Shown here in pieces: positions 29,328 through 56,450 of a stretch of 64,000 nt of DNA. Position 1 is the stretch's first letter, and each line of letters opens with the position of its first letter. The DNA comes from Escherichia phage AV111. Both the position numbers and the translations under genes were made by a program. The stretch lies in sequence record OR352941.1; one strand, given 5' to 3'. Under the pieces are notes generated by a model, which saw only the letters and a program-made list of their open reading frames with translations, did not search any database and was not told where the DNA came from.

Positions 29328-29333
29328 TTTTTA

Positions 29334-30776
29334 TTAAAATTTTAACTCATTGGCTAAGCTATCTAGGTCAGCACGTGTTGCTTTGGCTTTACCTACGCGT
29401 TCCGTACGATTCACCTCTGCCTGACGCATCTGAGCACCTGCGTTTTCATTTACTGTGTTAGGTGTGTTCATGCCTTCTTGCTCAATCTCAACCCATTTCT
29501 GATTGCCTTTACGTACACCCATCAGGAATTTATTCCACTTATTCTTATCGCCGTATCGTGATTTGATTTGTTTGATAAGTTGTTGTTCAGCTTGTGCAAG
29601 TTCTTCGGTTTCAATTACAGCCAACATGAAATCTGCCGTTGCTGGTAAACCTGCTGATTCTGCGATATCACTCATGTTCATGTCTGAAGCATCCCATGCT
29701 GCACGTCCTACTTGAGCTGCAGTCCATAGAACTGTTTCAGATTCTACTGCTAATGCACGAAGTTCTTCTGCGATAGCTTTAACTAATGTGTAGCTATTTT
29801 CAGTGTAAACTCTGATACGACAAGACCCACAAATACCTAAGTAATCAACCATGATTACAGACGGCACAAAGTTCTTCTTAAGTTTTAACTCATTAAGCAA
29901 TGCACGAAATGTATTAGCATTAGCTCCACCAGTAGGATACTGTTTAACTACTAAACGTCCTAATGTGGATTTTGAACGCCATTTTTCCATCTTGGCTTTA
30001 TATTCAGCATAAGATACGTTACCATCATCGATATCATCGAGTGATACGTCAAGCATGTTTGCATCTATACGCTTAGCACAAACTTCTTCAGCCATTTCCA
30101 TGGAAATATAAAGAACATTATGACCTGTTTGAAGATAATCTGCAGCAAGTGAACAAAGGCCTAAAGATTTACCGACGTTAACACCAGCCATTAAAACGTT
30201 TAGTGTACCTGTTTCAGCACCACCTTTGGTGATTTTATTCAAAATGTTTAATTTGAACGGGACCTTACGTGCTTTATTTAGATAAGAAAGCCAGCGTGCT
30301 TCGTAGTCTTCCATCCAGTCGTGTCCAACATAACTATCGAACGAAATTGAAAGTGCTTGACGCATAATATCAGGAATAGCTCCTACGTCAGGCATTTTCT
30401 TGTTACGTTGTTCTGGAGGTAGTTCAGCATTAGACTGAATCTCAATGATTTTGGATGTAGCATTATACATCGCTTTTTGCTGGACATATTTCTCAGTTTC
30501 TTTAACCAACCATTCGTGGTCTTCAGGAGTATCAGCCAATTTTTCAATTAGGTCTGAAGTTCCTTTATATTCGGCTTCAGTTAAAGAACTGTTATCTAAA
30601 GCCACCTTTAACGCATTGATAGATGGCATTGCATTATATTCGTTAACGTGGCTCTTTATAATTTTAAAGACATTTTTTGCCGGTCCACGCTCAAAATACT
30701 CAGAATCCATATAAGGCCAGACCTTAGAAAAATAAGCCTGGTCATATACGAGATGAGACAAAATAATTTCTACCAC
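29334..30776 (-). CDS. 41: replicative DNA helicase gp41 (DnaB-like)
   Basis: 480 aa; strong match to T4 gp41 throughout as recalled. Confidence 0.95.
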   Translation of the reverse strand: MVEIILSHLVYDQAYFSKVWPYMDSEYFERGPAKNVFKIIKSHVNEYNAMPSINALKVALDNSSLTEAEYKGTSDLIEKLADTPEDHEWLVKETEKYVQQKAMYNATSKIIEIQSNAELPPEQRNKKMPDVGAIPDIMRQALSISFDSYVGHDWMEDYEARWLSYLNKARKVPFKLNILNKITKGGAETGTLNVLMAGVNVGKSLGLCSLAADYLQTGHNVLYISMEMAEEVCAKRIDANMLDVSLDDIDDGNVSYAEYKAKMEKWRSKSTLGRLVVKQYPTGGANANTFRALLNELKLKKNFVPSVIMVDYLGICGSCRIRVYTENSYTLVKAIAEELRALAVESETVLWTAAQVGRAAWDASDMNMSDIAESAGLPATADFMLAVIETEELAQAEQQLIKQIKSRYGDKNKWNKFLMGVRKGNQKWVEIEQEGMNTPNTVNENAGAQMRQAEVNRTERVGKAKATRADLDSLANELKF

Positions 30777-38985: not shown

Positions 38986-41697
38986 TCAAAAATCGAACAT
39001 ATCGAACAGAGATGCTTTCTTCTCATAATCGAGTTTCGCTGCTGATGTGAATCCTTCAAGTGGTTTAATAAATGTCTTCTCAAGGAGAACAGTGTAGTCC
39101 ATCCAATGAAGTACATCGTCTTTAATTAAATCTGTGATTTCAGTACCAGAAGGCCATGCGATACATTTATCACCGAATGGGTTTCCTTCACGTAAAGGCA
39201 GAACATATACTTTTTCACCTTCTACAACTTGCGGCGCATCAATATTACCTTTGATAGCTCGGTTATATGTCAGAATTCCACGAATATGGAACGGGCATTT
39301 GGGGCCAGGGAATCCACCGACATCATATTTAGCAATGTTATTCGCAGAAGATACCGACGCGATGCTAATATAATTCAATTGACGGAATTCTTTTTCAAAC
39401 TCTTTAAAATATTCTTGTAATGATTCTTCACCTTCTTGAAGCATACGACGAATACATTCTTTAAGAGCTTTCTGTACTGCTTTAGGGGTCGAAGATTTCT
39501 GAGTCTCTAGACCCATGATTTTGAGTTTAGGCTCAGCGTAACGAGTGCCTTCCATATCCCACACGTTTAATGCATAACGTTTCTTACCAGTCCAGAATCC
39601 ACCAATACCTTTAGAACCGAGCGGAGGGCCAGCAATAGCTTCTCGGTCCATGAACATCAAATGTTGCTTATTATTCATGTATTCACACATTTCACGGAAA
39701 CCTCTATCAATAGCTGGTTCCATACGTTCACGTGCAAACTTATCTAAGAAGTCTACCCAATGGTTGGTATCACGGAATTTAGATTCACCAACCTTATCAA
39801 TAATTTTATCTGCAGATACGTAAATGGAGTCTGTATCACCATATAGAACGAAAGCTTCGCCTTCTGTACCACAAACTTCATTCAGATATTCATTAACTTT
39901 ACGTTCAATCCACTGTAAAGCCATTTGCCCAAATGTTGTGATTGCAGTTGCATTACGCAAATCGTAATAACGGAACCAAACGTTTCCAAGTGCACCATAA
40001 AGTGAGTTGATAAGCAATTTACGGTTAATCTGTGCAGTCATACCTGCAACTTCAGTACGTTGAGCTCTAAACAACATTTCATTAAGAGATTTAGCAGACA
40101 ACTTTTTAATCTTTTCTTTAATCTCATCACTGAAGTCGAAACGATAATCAACATCTAATGGTTCGTCAACAGAAAGATTAGGATTATGCAATGCCTCTTT
40201 AATTATTTCGCCATTACGTTGAGCTGCAAGCATGTAACCTTTATGTTCTTTACGTTGATTAAAGACCTTAGTGATTTCAGTTGGAACTACACCATCACGG
40301 TCTTTATAATACATCATGCCGTTAGGAGAGCAACTGTACACATCTGAAGGACGTTCAGCGATTGCGTTAATATAATCATGCAGTGGAGCTACTTTAAACG
40401 TTCCTGCTATTGTTTCAGGGCTAATATTCACTTGGCGAATAATACTTGGATACAGAGATGTAAGGTCGAAACTCATTACATATTTGTATCGATTTGGAAT
40501 AGGTTCCTTAACAAAAGCGCCAGGATAAGGTTGAACCGGGTGAGAACGACCTTGTGGAATCACCTTGTTCTGCTCTTTAAGGCTATTAAAAATAATAGCA
40601 TCCCATGTTTTAATTGGACTGAACACAGATTGAATCTGAATTTTAGCATAATAACCCATGTCCAAGCTCAAGTTAATGAACTGGCGTTTAGCATCAATTT
40701 GCAATACACGATATACGTCGATAATGTTATAAGAAATATATCGTTGGTGATTGCTTTCACGAAGCTTAGAAATAGGGCCGTCATATTTCAGTTTACCAAC
40801 GTTCAATTCAAATTCTGAAATGTAATCCAGAGAATACGACGGTTGGTTCGTGAAAGAGAACTTTTTGTAAAGGTCAATGTAATCAAGAACAGAGATACCG
40901 AACAATGTAATGATTTCACGAGAACCATACATGTTTTCGATAACTTTAACACGAGTTTTACGATGTGGTGATAAACGTTTCGCAGTAGATTCGCCAAAAA
41001 TATTCTTGATTCGGTTATACACATATGGAATATCAAATGACTCAACGTTCCATCCAGTCAAAATGACAGGAGTTTTCTGTTGCCAGAAGTTGAGATATTC
41101 CATCAACAATTCTTTTTCGTTATCGAACGGCATATAAATGATTTTATCGATAATTTCGGATGGAACTTCATCACCGCCTTGTTCTTGAAGCTTAGCAGCG
41201 ATTTCAATAGACCATTCTTCTACATTACCATATGGAGAATTCAATAGATCAAATACGTAGAACCTGTCGTCAATTGAGTCATAATGGGTGATAGCATCAA
41301 TCGGATGTTTTGCTTGTGACGGCTCAGGGAACCCATCCGGAGATGTTACTTCGATGTCGAAGTTAGCCACACGAATTTTTGTATGGTCGTATTTGATTTC
41401 ATAGTTATAAGTGTCAGACAAATACGCCAATTTGAAATCGTCCATGCCAAGTGCTTCAAGTCCGATATCTTCCATGCGTTTAATCCATTGAGACGCATCG
41501 CGCATATTAGCGAACAACTTACGAGTACACGGCTTACCGTAGATATCGAAATATTTCGTAGCCTGACTTTCTGGACAATGAGCAAACAGTGATGGTTTAT
41601 ATTCTACTTCACGAGTACGTTCACGGCCATTAGAATCGATGTAACGTTCAAAAATTGAATCACCAATCTGTTCAACCGTTAAGTAAAATTCTTTCAT
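38986..41697 (-). CDS. 43: DNA polymerase gp43 (family B), RB69-type
   Basis: 903 aa; N-terminus MKEFYLTVEQIGDSIFERYID and C-terminus LFDMFDF match the RB69 polymerase as recalled. Confidence 0.97.
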   Translation of the reverse strand: MKEFYLTVEQIGDSIFERYIDSNGRERTREVEYKPSLFAHCPESQATKYFDIYGKPCTRKLFANMRDASQWIKRMEDIGLEALGMDDFKLAYLSDTYNYEIKYDHTKIRVANFDIEVTSPDGFPEPSQAKHPIDAITHYDSIDDRFYVFDLLNSPYGNVEEWSIEIAAKLQEQGGDEVPSEIIDKIIYMPFDNEKELLMEYLNFWQQKTPVILTGWNVESFDIPYVYNRIKNIFGESTAKRLSPHRKTRVKVIENMYGSREIITLFGISVLDYIDLYKKFSFTNQPSYSLDYISEFELNVGKLKYDGPISKLRESNHQRYISYNIIDVYRVLQIDAKRQFINLSLDMGYYAKIQIQSVFSPIKTWDAIIFNSLKEQNKVIPQGRSHPVQPYPGAFVKEPIPNRYKYVMSFDLTSLYPSIIRQVNISPETIAGTFKVAPLHDYINAIAERPSDVYSCSPNGMMYYKDRDGVVPTEITKVFNQRKEHKGYMLAAQRNGEIIKEALHNPNLSVDEPLDVDYRFDFSDEIKEKIKKLSAKSLNEMLFRAQRTEVAGMTAQINRKLLINSLYGALGNVWFRYYDLRNATAITTFGQMALQWIERKVNEYLNEVCGTEGEAFVLYGDTDSIYVSADKIIDKVGESKFRDTNHWVDFLDKFARERMEPAIDRGFREMCEYMNNKQHLMFMDREAIAGPPLGSKGIGGFWTGKKRYALNVWDMEGTRYAEPKLKIMGLETQKSSTPKAVQKALKECIRRMLQEGEESLQEYFKEFEKEFRQLNYISIASVSSANNIAKYDVGGFPGPKCPFHIRGILTYNRAIKGNIDAPQVVEGEKVYVLPLREGNPFGDKCIAWPSGTEITDLIKDDVLHWMDYTVLLEKTFIKPLEGFTSAAKLDYEKKASLFDMFDF

Positions 41698-41701
41698 TTA
41701 A

Positions 41702-41725
41702 TTTCCTTTAGACGAGTTATTGTCT
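41702..41725 (-). promoter_or_regulatory. gene 43 translational operator candidate: hairpin AGAC-AAUAACUC-GUCU next to the AGGAAA RBS
   Basis: 4-bp stem with 8-nt loop directly upstream of the RBS, as described for T4 gp43 autoregulation. Confidence 0.5.
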
Positions 41726-41755
41726 TTTGTTTGTTGATGAACTTATTATACTCCA

Positions 41756-41775
41756 AATGGGACCGAAGTCCCATT
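41756..41775 (-). terminator. hairpin AAUGGGAC-UUCG-GUCCCAUU between regA and gene 43
   Basis: perfect 8-bp stem, UUCG loop; no strong U-run. Confidence 0.5.
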
Positions 41776-41778
41776 GCT

Positions 41779-42156
41779 TTAATTACCAATTGTATATTTT
41801 GCTTTCAAAGTCCAGTCATCTTTCTGTTTAAAAGAGATAACACGGAAGTTATTAGTCAGGCCAAACAGATCTTCACGAGCAGAGTCTTCAATAACAATCA
41901 ATCCCCAGTCTTCAAGCAACTGGGCAATCGAATCACGTCGCTGATAGTCTTCACCGTCAATATCAACCTGACGTCCATCCATACGCAACATTTCTTTAAA
42001 GTGGACGATGTAGTATTTACCTTGCTTTTGGAGGATATGACAGGACTGATAAAGAACTTTATCCTTGTTATTAGCGATGCCCATACGGGTCAAAGTCTCT
42101 TTGACTTTCAGAAAATCTTCGGGGTTCTTCAATTTAATTTCAATCATTTTTACCAT
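41779..42156 (-). CDS. regA: translational repressor RegA
   Basis: [25 protein letters not shown]...[11 protein letters not shown] matches T4 RegA as recalled; true start may be the ATG at 42147. Confidence 0.88.
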
Positions 42157-42713
42157 TCCAATGCTAATTTTTTAAATTGTTTTTGTTCTTTCACATTTTT
42201 TGTAACTTCTTTGAGAAACTCATCAGTGACCATGGCCTTCAGTTCTTTAAGGACTATTGGCAACTTGTTATTTTTTTCAAGGAGCCGCTTATACTCGGTA
42301 GCATCATTCATGTTGATTGTGTAACGTTTCATCAACAGTTTGATAACTAGTAACTCTGAAGTGTCTTCGACTAGTTTAGCCCATTTAGAGAATCGACGAC
42401 CACGTGGAATTGCCGCCATCATATAGTTGAAGTGCGCTTCATCACTTAATTCAGAACCGACTAAGTTCATCATGTAAACGGCTGGCATACATTCCGGGAA
42501 CTGGGATAATGAGTTCTCAACCATAAATTTTGAGTAGTCGACCTGAGCAATTGACATAGATTTCTTTTCATTAATAGCATTAATGATTTTAAAGAATTCA
42601 TTCTCAGGTTTTTCTTTAAACATGTCAGCACATTTTTGAATCGCATCAGCGTCATTAGACTTCCATGCAATTTGGTGCTCGTTAAGTTGGACGTCATCAT
42701 CAAATAAGTTCAT
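42150..42713 (-). CDS. 62: clamp loader small subunit gp62
   Basis: 187 aa; matches T4 gp62 length and sequence. Confidence 0.92.
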
Positions 42714-42714
42714 A

Positions 42715-43677
42715 TTATTTCCAAGTCAGTTCGCAGGTCAGTTGAAGAAGCATATACATAACATGTAATTCAATATTACTTGCTAATCCATGAAATTTAT
42801 TATTTTCGCCTGCGATTTCATAAAGCGAAATAATACTTTTACCAGGTGCAACTTGGTCATAACATTCTGAAACTAATTTATCGATGAACCATGAATAATC
42901 TGCGGCATATTTTGGAGCTAATGCACGAAGCTGTTTGATATCTTTGTTCTTCATTGCTTCGATAACATCATCTACCGTGCCACGATCATTGGTTACAATC
43001 GACAAAATACCTGCATCAAGAACACCTTTAGACGAGTACCTGTCTAATTGACCAATTGTACGTCGAAAGTCCGGGAAGTTCTTTTTAACCAGAGCTGCAA
43101 CAACTTTCATATCAGCGATTTCGATATTTTCGTTCTTACAGATTTCAACCATGCGATGAATCATTTTCTTCATCATTGAGATTTTATCTTCTTCGGTTGG
43201 ACGTCCGAATTCGATAACTCGACAACGACTACGTAATGGTTCAATAATTCCATCGATGTTGTTGGCAGTAATAATAATAGAACAGTTACTAGAGAATTCT
43301 TCCATGAATGTACGAAGGTGACGTTGTGATTCAGCGAGGCCACTACGGTCAAATTCATCGATAACAATAACTTTAGGCTTGCCTTCCATTGAGACTGAAC
43401 GAGCAAATGCAGTTAACGGACCGCGTACAAAATCAATTTTACAATCAGAACCGTTGACGAACATCATTTCAGCGTTGATATCGTTACATAGTGCTTTTGC
43501 CACGGTTGTTTTACCGGTACCAGGAGATGGAGAGTGTAAAATAATATGAGGAAGTTTTCCTTTAGATACTAAAGACTTGAATGTTTCATGGTCATACGCA
43601 GGCAGAATACATTCGTCAATGGAAGAAGGACGATATTTCTGTTCTAGAATGTGCTCTTTGGAATTGATAGTAATCAT
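42715..43677 (-). CDS. 44: clamp loader large subunit gp44 (AAA+)
   Basis: 320 aa; Walker [11 protein letters not shown]; matches T4 gp44. Confidence 0.95.
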
Positions 43678-49257: not shown

Positions 49258-49430
49258 TATCCACATAGTACACCGTACAGAGGCTCATTTGAACTTTTAA
49301 ATCGAATGGGCTTGTACGTAATAGTTCCTTCGGCTTTAGCTTTATCATAAGACTCTTTAAAACGTCTCATTCTTTCTGCTTTGCCTTTACGGATTTTATC
49401 GAAATTTTCAGAAGTCGGGATGTTCGTCAT
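49257..49430 (-). CDS. small protein (57 aa)
   Basis: ATG with GAGAGG RBS; below ORF-track cutoff. Confidence 0.35.
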   Translation of the reverse strand: MTNIPTSENFDKIRKGKAERMRRFKESYDKAKAEGTITYKPIRFKSSNEPLYGVLCG

Positions 49431-54165: not shown

Positions 54166-54636
54166 TTAATCATGTTTCCACACCCCATCGGTATTTGACC
54201 AAAGTCGCTGATTATCTGATCCTCGCCACAGCTTTTTAGTCGGAAGATTTTTCTCATACTTCCCATCAATAATAACATCAACATATTTAAGCATTTCTAG
54301 TTGTTTAATATCTTCAAACTTATATCCTGTCCACAACCAAATGCTTTTATTGGGATAAAGATTTTTTACTGTTTGAACAATGCAATGAATAACATCTCGA
54401 TTATCAGGATAGAGAGGGTCTCCTCCGGTTATAGTCAATCCTTCTATATAATCGTTATTCAAACATTCAATTAATTGTTCTAGTGTTTCACCAGTGAATG
54501 GAATACCATTTCTAGCATTCCATGTTGATTTATTATAGCACCCTTCACATTTATGCAAACAACCTGTAACGAAAAGAACGACCCTGCATCCAGGGCCATT
54601 CACAAAATCGCAAGGATAAAATCTATCATAATTCAT
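54166..54636 (-). CDS. nrdG: anaerobic ribonucleotide reductase activating protein NrdG (radical SAM)
   Basis: 156 aa; CX3CX2C motif CLHKCEGC near the N-terminus; synteny with nrdD. Confidence 0.9.
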   Translation of the reverse strand: MNYDRFYPCDFVNGPGCRVVLFVTGCLHKCEGCYNKSTWNARNGIPFTGETLEQLIECLNNDYIEGLTITGGDPLYPDNRDVIHCIVQTVKNLYPNKSIWLWTGYKFEDIKQLEMLKYVDVIIDGKYEKNLPTKKLWRGSDNQRLWSNTDGVWKHD

Positions 54637-56450
54637 TGGTGTTTAACCCTATGCATGATTTCTTTATTTTTGCCGAGATTAAATCCGCGTTCGTTCGGGT
54701 TTCCCAAATAACCGCATGTTCTTCTTATGGTGTTCATCTTTTTAGGATCAGTTTCTCCGCAAACTGAACAAACAAATCCGTTTTCAGTAGGAGTCATTTC
54801 ATGGGTACTTCCACATGTAAAACATTTATCTACTGGCATATTAACACCAAAATAATCTAAATGTTGTGCAGCATAATCCCACACGGCCTCAAGTCCTTTT
54901 AAGTTATTTTTCATATCAGGAAGTTCAACATAAGAAATGTGACCACCTGTCGCAATGAAATGATATGGCGCTTCACGAGAAATCTTTTCAAACGGAGTAA
55001 TATTTTCTTCTACTGAAACGTGGAAACTGTTAGTGTACCAGCCTTTATCGGTAACATCTTTTACACTTCCATATTTTTCTGTATCGAGTTTACAGAAGCG
55101 ATAACAAAGGTTTTCAGCAGGAGTAGAATACAAACTAAAAGCAAAACCAGTTCTTTCAGTCCACTGCTTAAGATGAGCATTCATTTTAGTTAAAATTTCT
55201 TGCCCAATATCACGGCCGACAAGAATATTCAATTCGTGAATACCAATGTATCCTAAAGACACTGAACTTCTACCGTTTTTAAATAACTCAATTATGTCGT
55301 CATCAGGTTTAAGACGAACCCCGAATGCACCTTCTTGGTAAAGAATAGGAGCTACAGTTGCTTTAACTCCTTTTAAGGAACTAATTCTACACATCAAAGC
55401 TTCAAAACACAGGTCCATTCGTTCGTTAAATAGCTCAACAAATTTCTGTTCATTGAACTGTGTTCCAATATAAGAATCTAACGCAATACGAGGAAGATTC
55501 AGTGTTACAACACCAAGATTATTACGTCCATCAAGAATTTCATTACCAGTCGAATCTTTCCATACGCTCAAGAAACTACGGCAACCCATTGGAGAAACTG
55601 GAACTGAAGAACCGGTAATAGCTTTATTATTCTTAACCGAAATAATGTCAGGATACATTCTTTTGCTTGCACATTCTAACGCAAGTTGTTTAATATCATA
55701 GTTTGGATCATCTTTATAAAGATTAACACCTTCTTCAACAAACATAACAAGTTTAGGAAAAATAGGAGTTATTCCATCACGACCAAGACCTTTAATGCGG
55801 TTTTTAAGAATTGCCTTCTGAATCATTCGTTCAGTCCAATCGGTTCCCGTACCAAATGTAATTGTTACAAAAGGAGTTTGTCCGTTTGAACTAAAGAGAG
55901 TGTTTACTTCATATTCATAAGCTTGGAATGCATCGTATACGTCTTTTTCTGTTTTAGATTGAGCATAATTCAACGCGTCAGCGATTTGCCATTTTTCTGC
56001 ATCTTCAACATGTTTAGCGTATGTACGTTTAACATAAGGAGAAAGAACTTTATCGACATTCGCAAAAGTCGTTCCGCCGTATTGGTGTGAAGCAACTTGT
56101 GCAGTAATTTGTGCCATAATTGCAGTAGCAACACCAATCGATTTAGGCGTTTCAATTTGAGCATTGCCTAATTTAAATCCGTTCTCAAGCATCCCTTTTA
56201 AATCTACTAAACAACAATTAGTAAAAGGCAATGATATACTGTAATCTAAATCATGAAAATGAATTAACCCGGCATTATGAGCATTTACAATATGGCTTGG
56301 AAGAATACTGCAAGCGATATGTTTAGAAACAATACCGGCCATTAAATCTCTTTTTGTTGGAAAGACACGAGAATCTTTGTTGGCGTTTTCGGTATTTAAT
56401 TCTTTATCTTTATTTGAAATAAAATTTAAAACATCTTTCTCTAAAGACAT
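54633..56450 (-). CDS. nrdD: anaerobic ribonucleoside-triphosphate reductase NrdD
   Basis: 605 aa; C-terminal glycyl-radical motif RTCGYLG; uninterrupted ORF. Confidence 0.95.
   Translation of the reverse strand: MSLEKDVLNFISNKDKELNTENANKDSRVFPTKRDLMAGIVSKHIACSILPSHIVNAHNAGLIHFHDLDYSISLPFTNCCLVDLKGMLENGFKLGNAQIETPKSIGVATAIMAQITAQVASHQYGGTTFANVDKVLSPYVKRTYAKHVEDAEKWQIADALNYAQSKTEKDVYDAFQAYEYEVNTLFSSNGQTPFVTITFGTGTDWTERMIQKAILKNRIKGLGRDGITPIFPKLVMFVEEGVNLYKDDPNYDIKQLALECASKRMYPDIISVKNNKAITGSSVPVSPMGCRSFLSVWKDSTGNEILDGRNNLGVVTLNLPRIALDSYIGTQFNEQKFVELFNERMDLCFEALMCRISSLKGVKATVAPILYQEGAFGVRLKPDDDIIELFKNGRSSVSLGYIGIHELNILVGRDIGQEILTKMNAHLKQWTERTGFAFSLYSTPAENLCYRFCKLDTEKYGSVKDVTDKGWYTNSFHVSVEENITPFEKISREAPYHFIATGGHISYVELPDMKNNLKGLEAVWDYAAQHLDYFGVNMPVDKCFTCGSTHEMTPTENGFVCSVCGETDPKKMNTIRRTCGYLGNPNERGFNLGKNKEIMHRVKHQ

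Follow-up and report, generated by a model that had tools for sequence, protein, structure and literature searches.

The intercistronic region upstream of gene 43 in the analyzed DNA of Escherichia phage AV111 (sequence record OR352941.1; 64,000 nt, hereafter called the window) very probably carries a gp43 translational operator of the RB69 type, accompanied by a P43-type promoter and a C(UUCG)G hairpin. Judging by its sequence, AGAC-AAUAACUC-GUCU represents the hairpin of the translational operator published for RB69 gene 43, because the RNA is identical and its length of 16 nt is the one given for RB69 in the review PMC3014915. Between positions −115 and +3 relative to gene 43 (118 nt), the window agrees with RB69 at every base. 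Given this 100% RNA identity and the near-identical gp43, binding of gp43 and the resulting repression can be expected in this phage with high confidence. It should be stressed that the element is already known and is well described in the literature.

Organization of the regA-43 region and the operator hairpin

The 903-aa product of the ORF located downstream of the analyzed spacer matched, over its full length, the polymerase chains 1CLQ, 1IG9, and 1WAJ (approximately 2090–2096 bits), which we take to be PDB entries of the RB69 DNA polymerase. A 700-nt query around the regA-43 site showed 98.9% identity to phage RB69 and 99.9% identity to vB_Eco_mar005P1, and its top matches were all Mosigvirus phages with regA, 43, and 62 annotated. 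These top matches, together with the polymerase match, indicate therefore that the window originates from an RB69-type T4-like phage, and the region, as identified by sequence comparison, is the regA-43 intercistronic control region of such a (Mosigvirus) phage, encoded on the minus strand. The features distinguished there are as follows:

42715–43677, minus strand: gene 44 (from the ORF list)
42150–42713, minus strand: gene 62 (from the ORF list)
41779–42156, minus strand: regA, translational repressor RegA (from the ORF list; labeled regA in RB69 and other Mosigvirus records)
41781–41779, minus strand: UAA stop codon of regA (read from the sequence)
41775–41756, minus strand: C(UUCG)G hairpin (hairpin 1), AAUGGGAC-UUCG-GUCCCAUU, 8 bp, loop 41767–41764
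41745–41754, minus strand: GGAGUAUAAU block (GGAG and TATAAT)
41754–41751, minus strand: GGAG (read from the sequence)
41750–41745, minus strand: TATAAT, putative −10 element of the gene 43 promoter
41738–41740, minus strand: expected start of gene 43 transcription, deduced from the analogous T4 P43 (leader of about 41–43 nt)
41710–41725, minus strand: operator hairpin (hairpin 2), AGAC (41725–41722), AAUAACUC (41721–41714), GUCU (41713–41710); −28 to −13 from the A of AUG
41698–41709, minus strand: single-stranded 3' part of the operator, i.e., Shine-Dalgarno sequence and spacer to AUG
41707–41704, minus strand: Shine-Dalgarno sequence AGGA, −10 to −7
41697–41695, minus strand: AUG of gene 43 (read from the sequence)
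38986–41697, minus strand: gene 43, family B DNA polymerase, 903 aa (from the ORF list; labeled gp43 in RB69)

Read along the minus strand, the order is UAA (regA stop)-AGC-AAUGGGAC-UUCG-GUCCCAUU-U-GGAG-UAUAAU-AAGUUCAUCAACAAACAAA-AGAC-AAUAACUC-GUCU-AA-AGGA-AAUUAA-AUG, and the two hairpins are separated by exactly 30 nt. An earlier note on this DNA had proposed an operator-like hairpin with a 4-bp stem and an 8-nt loop (AGAC…GUCU) just 5' of the polymerase ribosome binding site, which was found at 41725–41710, in front of AGGA at 41707–41704. It had also placed an 8-bp UUCG hairpin about 30 nt further upstream, between regA and gene 43, and this hairpin is located at 41775–41756. The 87-nt spacer is present, with at least 99% identity, in 144 phage records.

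The background on the operator and the promoter was drawn from two reviews (PMC3014915 and PMC2988021). The gp43 proteins of T4 and of RB69 are autogenous translational repressors, and their operator consists of an upstream hairpin and a sequence overlapping the ribosome binding site; the hairpin comprises 18 nt in T4 but 16 nt in RB69, the loop nucleotides (-UAAC-) being the same in both, and in RB69 gp43 it is the palm domain to which the RB69 operator RNA can be crosslinked (Uzan and Miller 2010, PMC3014915). Both polymerases have been described as RNA-binding autogenous repressors of differing specificities, for which binding of RNA and binding of DNA are mutually exclusive (Borjac-Natour et al., PMC535899). 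A text search of the literature for the loop string AAUAACUC returned unrelated papers only. The first SELEX experiment was directed at the T4 gene 43 operator, and within the operator loop, which has a UAAC core, the 3' AC is important for binding. Wang et al. are said to have found, in 1997, that T4 gp43 acts specifically on its own operator, while RB69 gp43 reportedly represses both.

Compared with the RB69 operator (Wang, Pavlov and Karam 1997; Petrov and Karam 2002; both via PMC3014915), the spacer sequence, the 16-nt hairpin, and the Shine-Dalgarno spacing are the same, the polymerase is essentially the same, and no difference was detectable, although the phage analyzed here is a separate isolate. 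The homologous leader of T4 reads AAGGGGC-UUCG-GCCCCUU-AUUU-GGAGUAUAAU-AUAUCAAG-AGCCU-AAUAACUC-GGGCU-AUAAACU-AAGGA-AUAUCU-AUG. The T4 operator (Andrake et al. 1988; Tuerk et al. 1990) thus shares with that of the window the 8-nt loop AAUAACUC and the position in the leader, downstream of the GGAGUAUAAU block and a C(UUCG)G hairpin. The two differ in the stem (5 bp, AGCCU/GGGCU, 18 nt in T4 versus 4 bp, AGAC/GUCU, 16 nt in the window), in the distance from the hairpin end to AUG (18 versus 12 nt), and in the distance from TATAAT to the operator hairpin (8 versus 19 nt). The presence of the same loop at the homologous site of T4 bears out the match to the T4 operator layout that had been claimed in the earlier note. 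Alignment with the T4 and RB69 operators, proposed there as a check which could have placed them elsewhere or with another loop sequence, mapped both exactly to this position and with the same loop.

In the folding analysis (ViennaRNA), the 96-nt region reached −15.9 kcal/mol (z = −2.3), with both hairpins in the minimum-free-energy structure. The operator hairpin by itself is thermodynamically weak (−3.2 kcal/mol), and its pairs form with a probability of about 0.84 in the predicted leader plus early coding sequence. The hairpin lies in the leader of the DNA polymerase gene, directly 5' of the Shine-Dalgarno sequence, and AGAC-AAUAACUC-GUCU has the expected shape of a 4–5-bp stem with the 8-nt loop AAUAACUC. 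The 3' extension containing the ribosome binding site is unstructured in the minimum-free-energy structure predicted for the intergenic region, where the Shine-Dalgarno sequence and the spacer are unpaired; in the ensemble including the coding sequence they are unpaired in approximately 50%.

A stem of 4 bp closing a loop of 8 nt has no significance as a shape alone. Either strand of the window contains 414 such Watson-Crick hairpins (about 6.5 per kb), and the motif AATNACTC occurs in it 13 times versus 13.6 expected. The significance of the operator comes instead from its position, its identity to a characterized element, and the covariation in relatives. The gp43 operator has no Rfam family; a scan of positions 41500–42000 at permissive thresholds gave only noise matches (E > 1). 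Another hairpin with the exact loop AAUAACUC, having a 5-bp stem which includes two G-U pairs, is present at about 55779–55760 on the minus strand, within a 605-aa ORF (54633–56450, minus strand), possibly nrdD. It was rejected as a second operator and judged coincidental, since it is embedded in the ORF and chance alone would yield about 0.25 such sites.

Comparative support across T4-like phages

For the comparative analysis, gene 43 leaders were gathered from annotated phages of many genera and, additionally, by a pattern scan of IMG/VR, in which the pattern required AATNACTC and the matches were filtered by the gene 43 N-terminus. The layout composed of a tetraloop hairpin, GGAGUAUAAU, a 4–5-bp stem with an 8-nt loop, AAGGA, and AUG was found in Mosigvirus, Tequatrovirus, Dhakavirus, Winklervirus, Tegunavirus, Marfavirus, Jiaodavirus, and Kanagawavirus. 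In Bragavirus, which is outside Tevenvirinae, the operator layout is present but the GGAGUAUAAU block is absent.

The operators were aligned as 13 distinct hairpins from about ten T4-like lineages, anchored on the loop only, so that no pairing bias was introduced. The nucleotides A1A2U3 and A5C6U7C8, together with the following G, are invariant, i.e., seven of the eight loop positions are fixed, while A, C, or U occupies position 4. The loop AAUNACUC is thus kept in all 13 distinct operators while the stem covaries, and the stems observed were AGAC/GUCU, AGUC/GACU, AGGC/GUCU, GACC/GGUC, AGCCU/GGGCU, AGACU/GGUCU, AGUCC/GGACU, and AUUCU/GGAAU. In the 5-pair structure, 83% of cells were paired versus 56% in shuffled alignments (none of the 500 shuffles reached the observed value), both sides had changed in 17 cells, and compensatory changes were found in three of the five pairs. 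When the 3' partner was slid by 1–3 columns, pairing fell to 23–45%. This shows that the operator hairpin is under structural selection.

A stem of at least 4 bp was present in 27 of the 28 IMG/VR matches with a recognizable gene 43 N-terminus, and the remaining one (L110) has a GUCC/GGAC pairing in a shifted register. Most matches to the pattern were due to chance and were removed by the N-terminus filter; those not located upstream of gene 43 constitute an internal negative control, as approximately 90% of them have a stem of 0–2 bp.

Natural operator loops differ at position 4 only and comprise AAUAACUC, AAUCACUC, and AAUUACUC (in L003, L004, L006, L007, L009, L011, L105, and other leaders). 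The -CAAC- loop, known as the "major variant" from SELEX (PMC3014915), was absent from all of the leaders collected, among which those from the IMG/VR pattern could not have included it, as AATNACTC was required. No AAUNACUC hairpin was found in the gene 43 leader of the examined Biquartavirus, Pseudotevenvirus, Krischvirus, Slopekvirus, and Morganella phages, which is consistent with the statement that certain gp43 proteins lack autoregulation or rely on different loops (PMC3014915). The loop variants of the operator may track lineage differences in the RNA specificity of gp43.

An extra small hypothetical ORF is present between regA and gene 43 in Dhakavirus, some Tequatrovirus (RB14-type), Kanagawavirus, and Bragavirus (L003, 640–897; L005, 683–904; L009, 683–847; L011, 1581–1808). 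Where such an ORF is inserted, the module of hairpin, TATAAT, and operator adjoins gene 43 and not regA. In kaaroe (Escherichia phage, Krischvirus RB49; L014, about 1880–1952), in turn, a sigma-70 consensus TTGACA-N17-TATAAT replaces the hairpin-GGAGTATAAT module, and there is no AAUNACUC hairpin.

The element is real but ordinary, and the main value of its identification is that of a positive control, i.e., a textbook gp43 RNA-protein autoregulatory element was recovered from sequence alone, without tools. The comparative additions are modest (covariation for both hairpins in about ten T4-like lineages, the natural AAUCACUC and AAUUACUC loops, and the lack of an Rfam family), and the understanding of gp43 autoregulation is unchanged by them.

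The gene 43 promoter and the C(UUCG)G hairpin

Between the two hairpins, where the earlier note had pointed to a TATAAT, this hexamer is located at 41750–41745. It is most likely the −10 element of gene 43's own MotA-dependent promoter, a homologue of the middle promoter P43 of T4. This reading was adopted because the T4 P43 start lies directly downstream of the T4 TATAAT with which that of the window aligns. The P43 start has been placed at 29933 (Hinton 2010, PMC2988021, Table 1), i.e., 5 nt downstream of the T4 TATAAT, which, with the gene 43 ATG at 29893, gives a 40-nt leader. Expression of the gene 43 region of T4 is highly MotA-dependent according to T4 RNA-seq and omics papers. The hexamer at 41750–41745 has the form TAnnnT, as defined for a −10 element without a −35 match. 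The sigma-70 consensus scan found no two-hexamer promoter at this site on the minus strand, which is expected for a promoter lacking the −35 element. The 10-mer GGAGUAUAAU, which includes the hexamer, is present also in T4, Dhakavirus, Marfavirus, Jiaodavirus, and Kanagawavirus.

The consensus of the MotA box is (a/t)(a/t)(a/t)TGCTT(t/c)A, centered near −30 and separated from the −10 element by approximately 12 ± 1 bp. The promoter of the window shares with T4 P43 the GGAGTATAAT sequence and, about 30 bp before the expected start, a G/ACTTCG element. In T4, the GCTT of the hairpin loop falls at −31 to −28 from the P43 start, at the site expected for the MotA box core, whereas the corresponding core of the window is ACTT, one mismatch from GCTT, and the spacing between the core and TATAAT is 15 nt versus 17 nt in T4. 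The whole MotA-like elements are GGGACTTCG-N13-TATAAT in the window, inside the hairpin (41772–41745), GGGGCTTCG-N15-TATAAT in T4 (L002, 2468–2439), and TTTACTTTA-N12-TATAAT in Jiaodavirus (L008/L010), where it lies apart from the hairpin. It should be mentioned that the spacing in T4 P43 exceeds the canonical one, although P43 is an experimentally listed middle promoter. In the record of SA79RD (Mosigvirus), two annotations cover the same sequence, namely a predicted rho-independent terminator and a "T4 middle promoter GCTT(N13-15)TATAAT with 1 bp mismatch", and a Tequatrovirus record also contains a predicted middle promoter at the homologous site. Owing to the ACTT core, the MotA dependence of the window promoter is uncertain.

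The UUCG hairpin (GGGAC-UUCG-GUCCC in its inner part) starts 3 nt after the regA stop and has a predicted folding energy of −10.3 kcal/mol. Its stem was paired in 95% of cells, with compensatory changes in seven of the eight pairs across 12 lineages, in an alignment which was chosen by a best-hairpin search and therefore leans towards structure. In relatives, the tetraloop of the upstream hairpin is UUCG, UACG, UUAC, or GAAA. Downstream of the hairpin, the sense strand continues with UGGAGUAUAA. This tail does not constitute a U-tract (at least five U in the 8 nt directly after the hairpin) of the kind that defines an intrinsic terminator, and the terminator consensus scan did not call the hairpin on the minus strand; a terminator was called on the plus strand only. 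U-rich tails do follow this hairpin in several relatives, among them Jiaodavirus, Dhakavirus, and Bragavirus. In the plus-strand reading (41756–41785), the hairpin is followed by GCTTTAATTA and is terminator-like, and it might stop antisense transcription coming from the gene 43 side.

In the window there are nine C(UUCG)G-type hairpins with a stem of at least 6 bp, all on the transcribed (minus) strand: 49258–49239, 41775–41756, 31085–31066, 29330–29309, 22855–22834, 10717–10700, 6103–6088, 3766–3741, and 2236–2219. Those starting at 49258, 22855, and 6103 are each followed by a U-tract and are terminator-like, and others precede promoter-like sequences, e.g., that at 29330, followed by GTTTAC. 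According to a paper citing Tuerk et al. (1988), C(UUCG)G hairpins are abundant in intergenic regions of T4 and were linked to reverse-transcriptase stops and to mRNA stability. The copy at 41775–41756 belongs to this class, having, like the T4-type hairpins, a UUCG loop closed by C-G, a stable G+C-rich stem, an intergenic location, and orientation on the transcribed strand. Unlike the copies at 49258, 22855, and 6103, it lacks a U-tract, and it overlaps the promoter. Because a proper U-tract is missing, it is more likely to act as an RNA 3'-end/stability element, or as a weak terminator, for transcripts of the regA cluster, and in this reading it would also overlap the activator site of the promoter that follows.

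The loop of this hairpin, as DNA (ACTTCG), sits at the site expected for the MotA box of the gene 43 promoter. It is conceivable, though rather unlikely in our estimation, that a dual use exists here, in which the RNA ends or stabilizes transcripts of the regA cluster while the G/ACTTCG of the DNA loop serves as the MotA box core of P43. If so, the end of upstream transcription and the activation of the polymerase promoter would be linked through a single sequence.

Alternative explanations and the proposed mechanism

That the 4-bp hairpin arose by chance in an A/U-rich leader, with no function, would agree with the frequency of such hairpins (about 6.5 per kb per strand), the loop motif occurring as often as expected, the energy of just −3.2 kcal/mol, and the lack of an Rfam family match. 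Yet seven of the eight loop positions are invariant and the stem covaries in about ten lineages, the matches of AATNACTCG elsewhere almost never have a stem, and the sequence is that of an experimentally characterized operator. The covariation and the identity to the characterized RB69 operator exclude a chance hairpin for practical purposes, leaving it a negligible probability. It also appears very improbable that RegA is the main factor controlling initiation of gene 43, through the A/U-rich AAAUUAAAUG, with the hairpin being incidental. Sites known to be bound by RegA lack structure, are rich in A/U, and overlap the AUG (e.g., AAAUUAUGAUU in T4 gene 44), UAA-rich sequences were selected in SELEX with RB69 RegA (PMC3014915), and the window does carry GGAAAUUAAAUGAAA; such sites, however, need no hairpin, whereas it is the hairpin with its loop that is the conserved and covarying part, and the literature assigns the control of gene 43 to gp43 itself (PMC3014915, PMC535899). 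RegA control of the A/U-rich initiation region may nevertheless form an extra layer. T4 gp43 is not known to be among the proteins whose synthesis is regA-sensitive.

Both hairpins could also be considered determinants of RNA stability or processing rather than protein operators, with hairpin 1 acting as a barrier to 3' exonucleases, a RegB cut at GGAG separating the regA and gene 43 mRNAs, and hairpin 2 as a 5' stabilizer against RNase E. This would be in line with the abundance of CUUCGG hairpins in intergenic regions of T4-type phages, their link to mRNA stability, and the nine copies on the transcribed strand here, as well as with GGAGUAUAAUAA (41754–41743, minus strand), which partly fits the RegB consensus GG*AGRAYARAA (five of the seven downstream positions). 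However, resistance to RegB is stated in a review for the majority of middle transcripts that contain an intergenic GGAG, and both the invariant loop of hairpin 2 and the published binding of gp43 would be left unexplained. We accept such a role in part for hairpin 1; it does not fit hairpin 2, and as an account of both hairpins it seems highly unlikely.

In the preferred reading, i.e., that of a gp43 operator, the UUCG hairpin would most likely either protect the 3' end of the 45-44-62-regA transcripts or act as a weak site of termination or pausing for them. The GGAGTATAAT sequence would supply the −10 element of a dedicated gene 43 promoter, a putative MotA/AsiA-dependent homologue of P43 whose start is shown in T4 and predicted here, from which a gene 43 mRNA with a leader of about 40 nt would be produced. 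The operator would be composed of the 16-nt AGAC-AAUAACUC-GUCU hairpin and the adjoining unstructured Shine-Dalgarno segment. With gp43 in excess of its DNA substrates, free gp43 would bind the operator RNA and cover the ribosome binding site, and the bound protein (hairpin at −28 to −13, Shine-Dalgarno sequence at −10 to −7) would block 30S initiation, so that polymerase synthesis stops. Primer-template DNA would compete with the RNA and titrate gp43, by which synthesis could follow replication demand. A loop change, such as AAUAACUC to AAUAAGGC, or disruption of the stem would be expected to alter gp43 synthesis.

The GGAGUAUAAUAA sequence is conserved in several genera, and read-through transcripts may be cut there.
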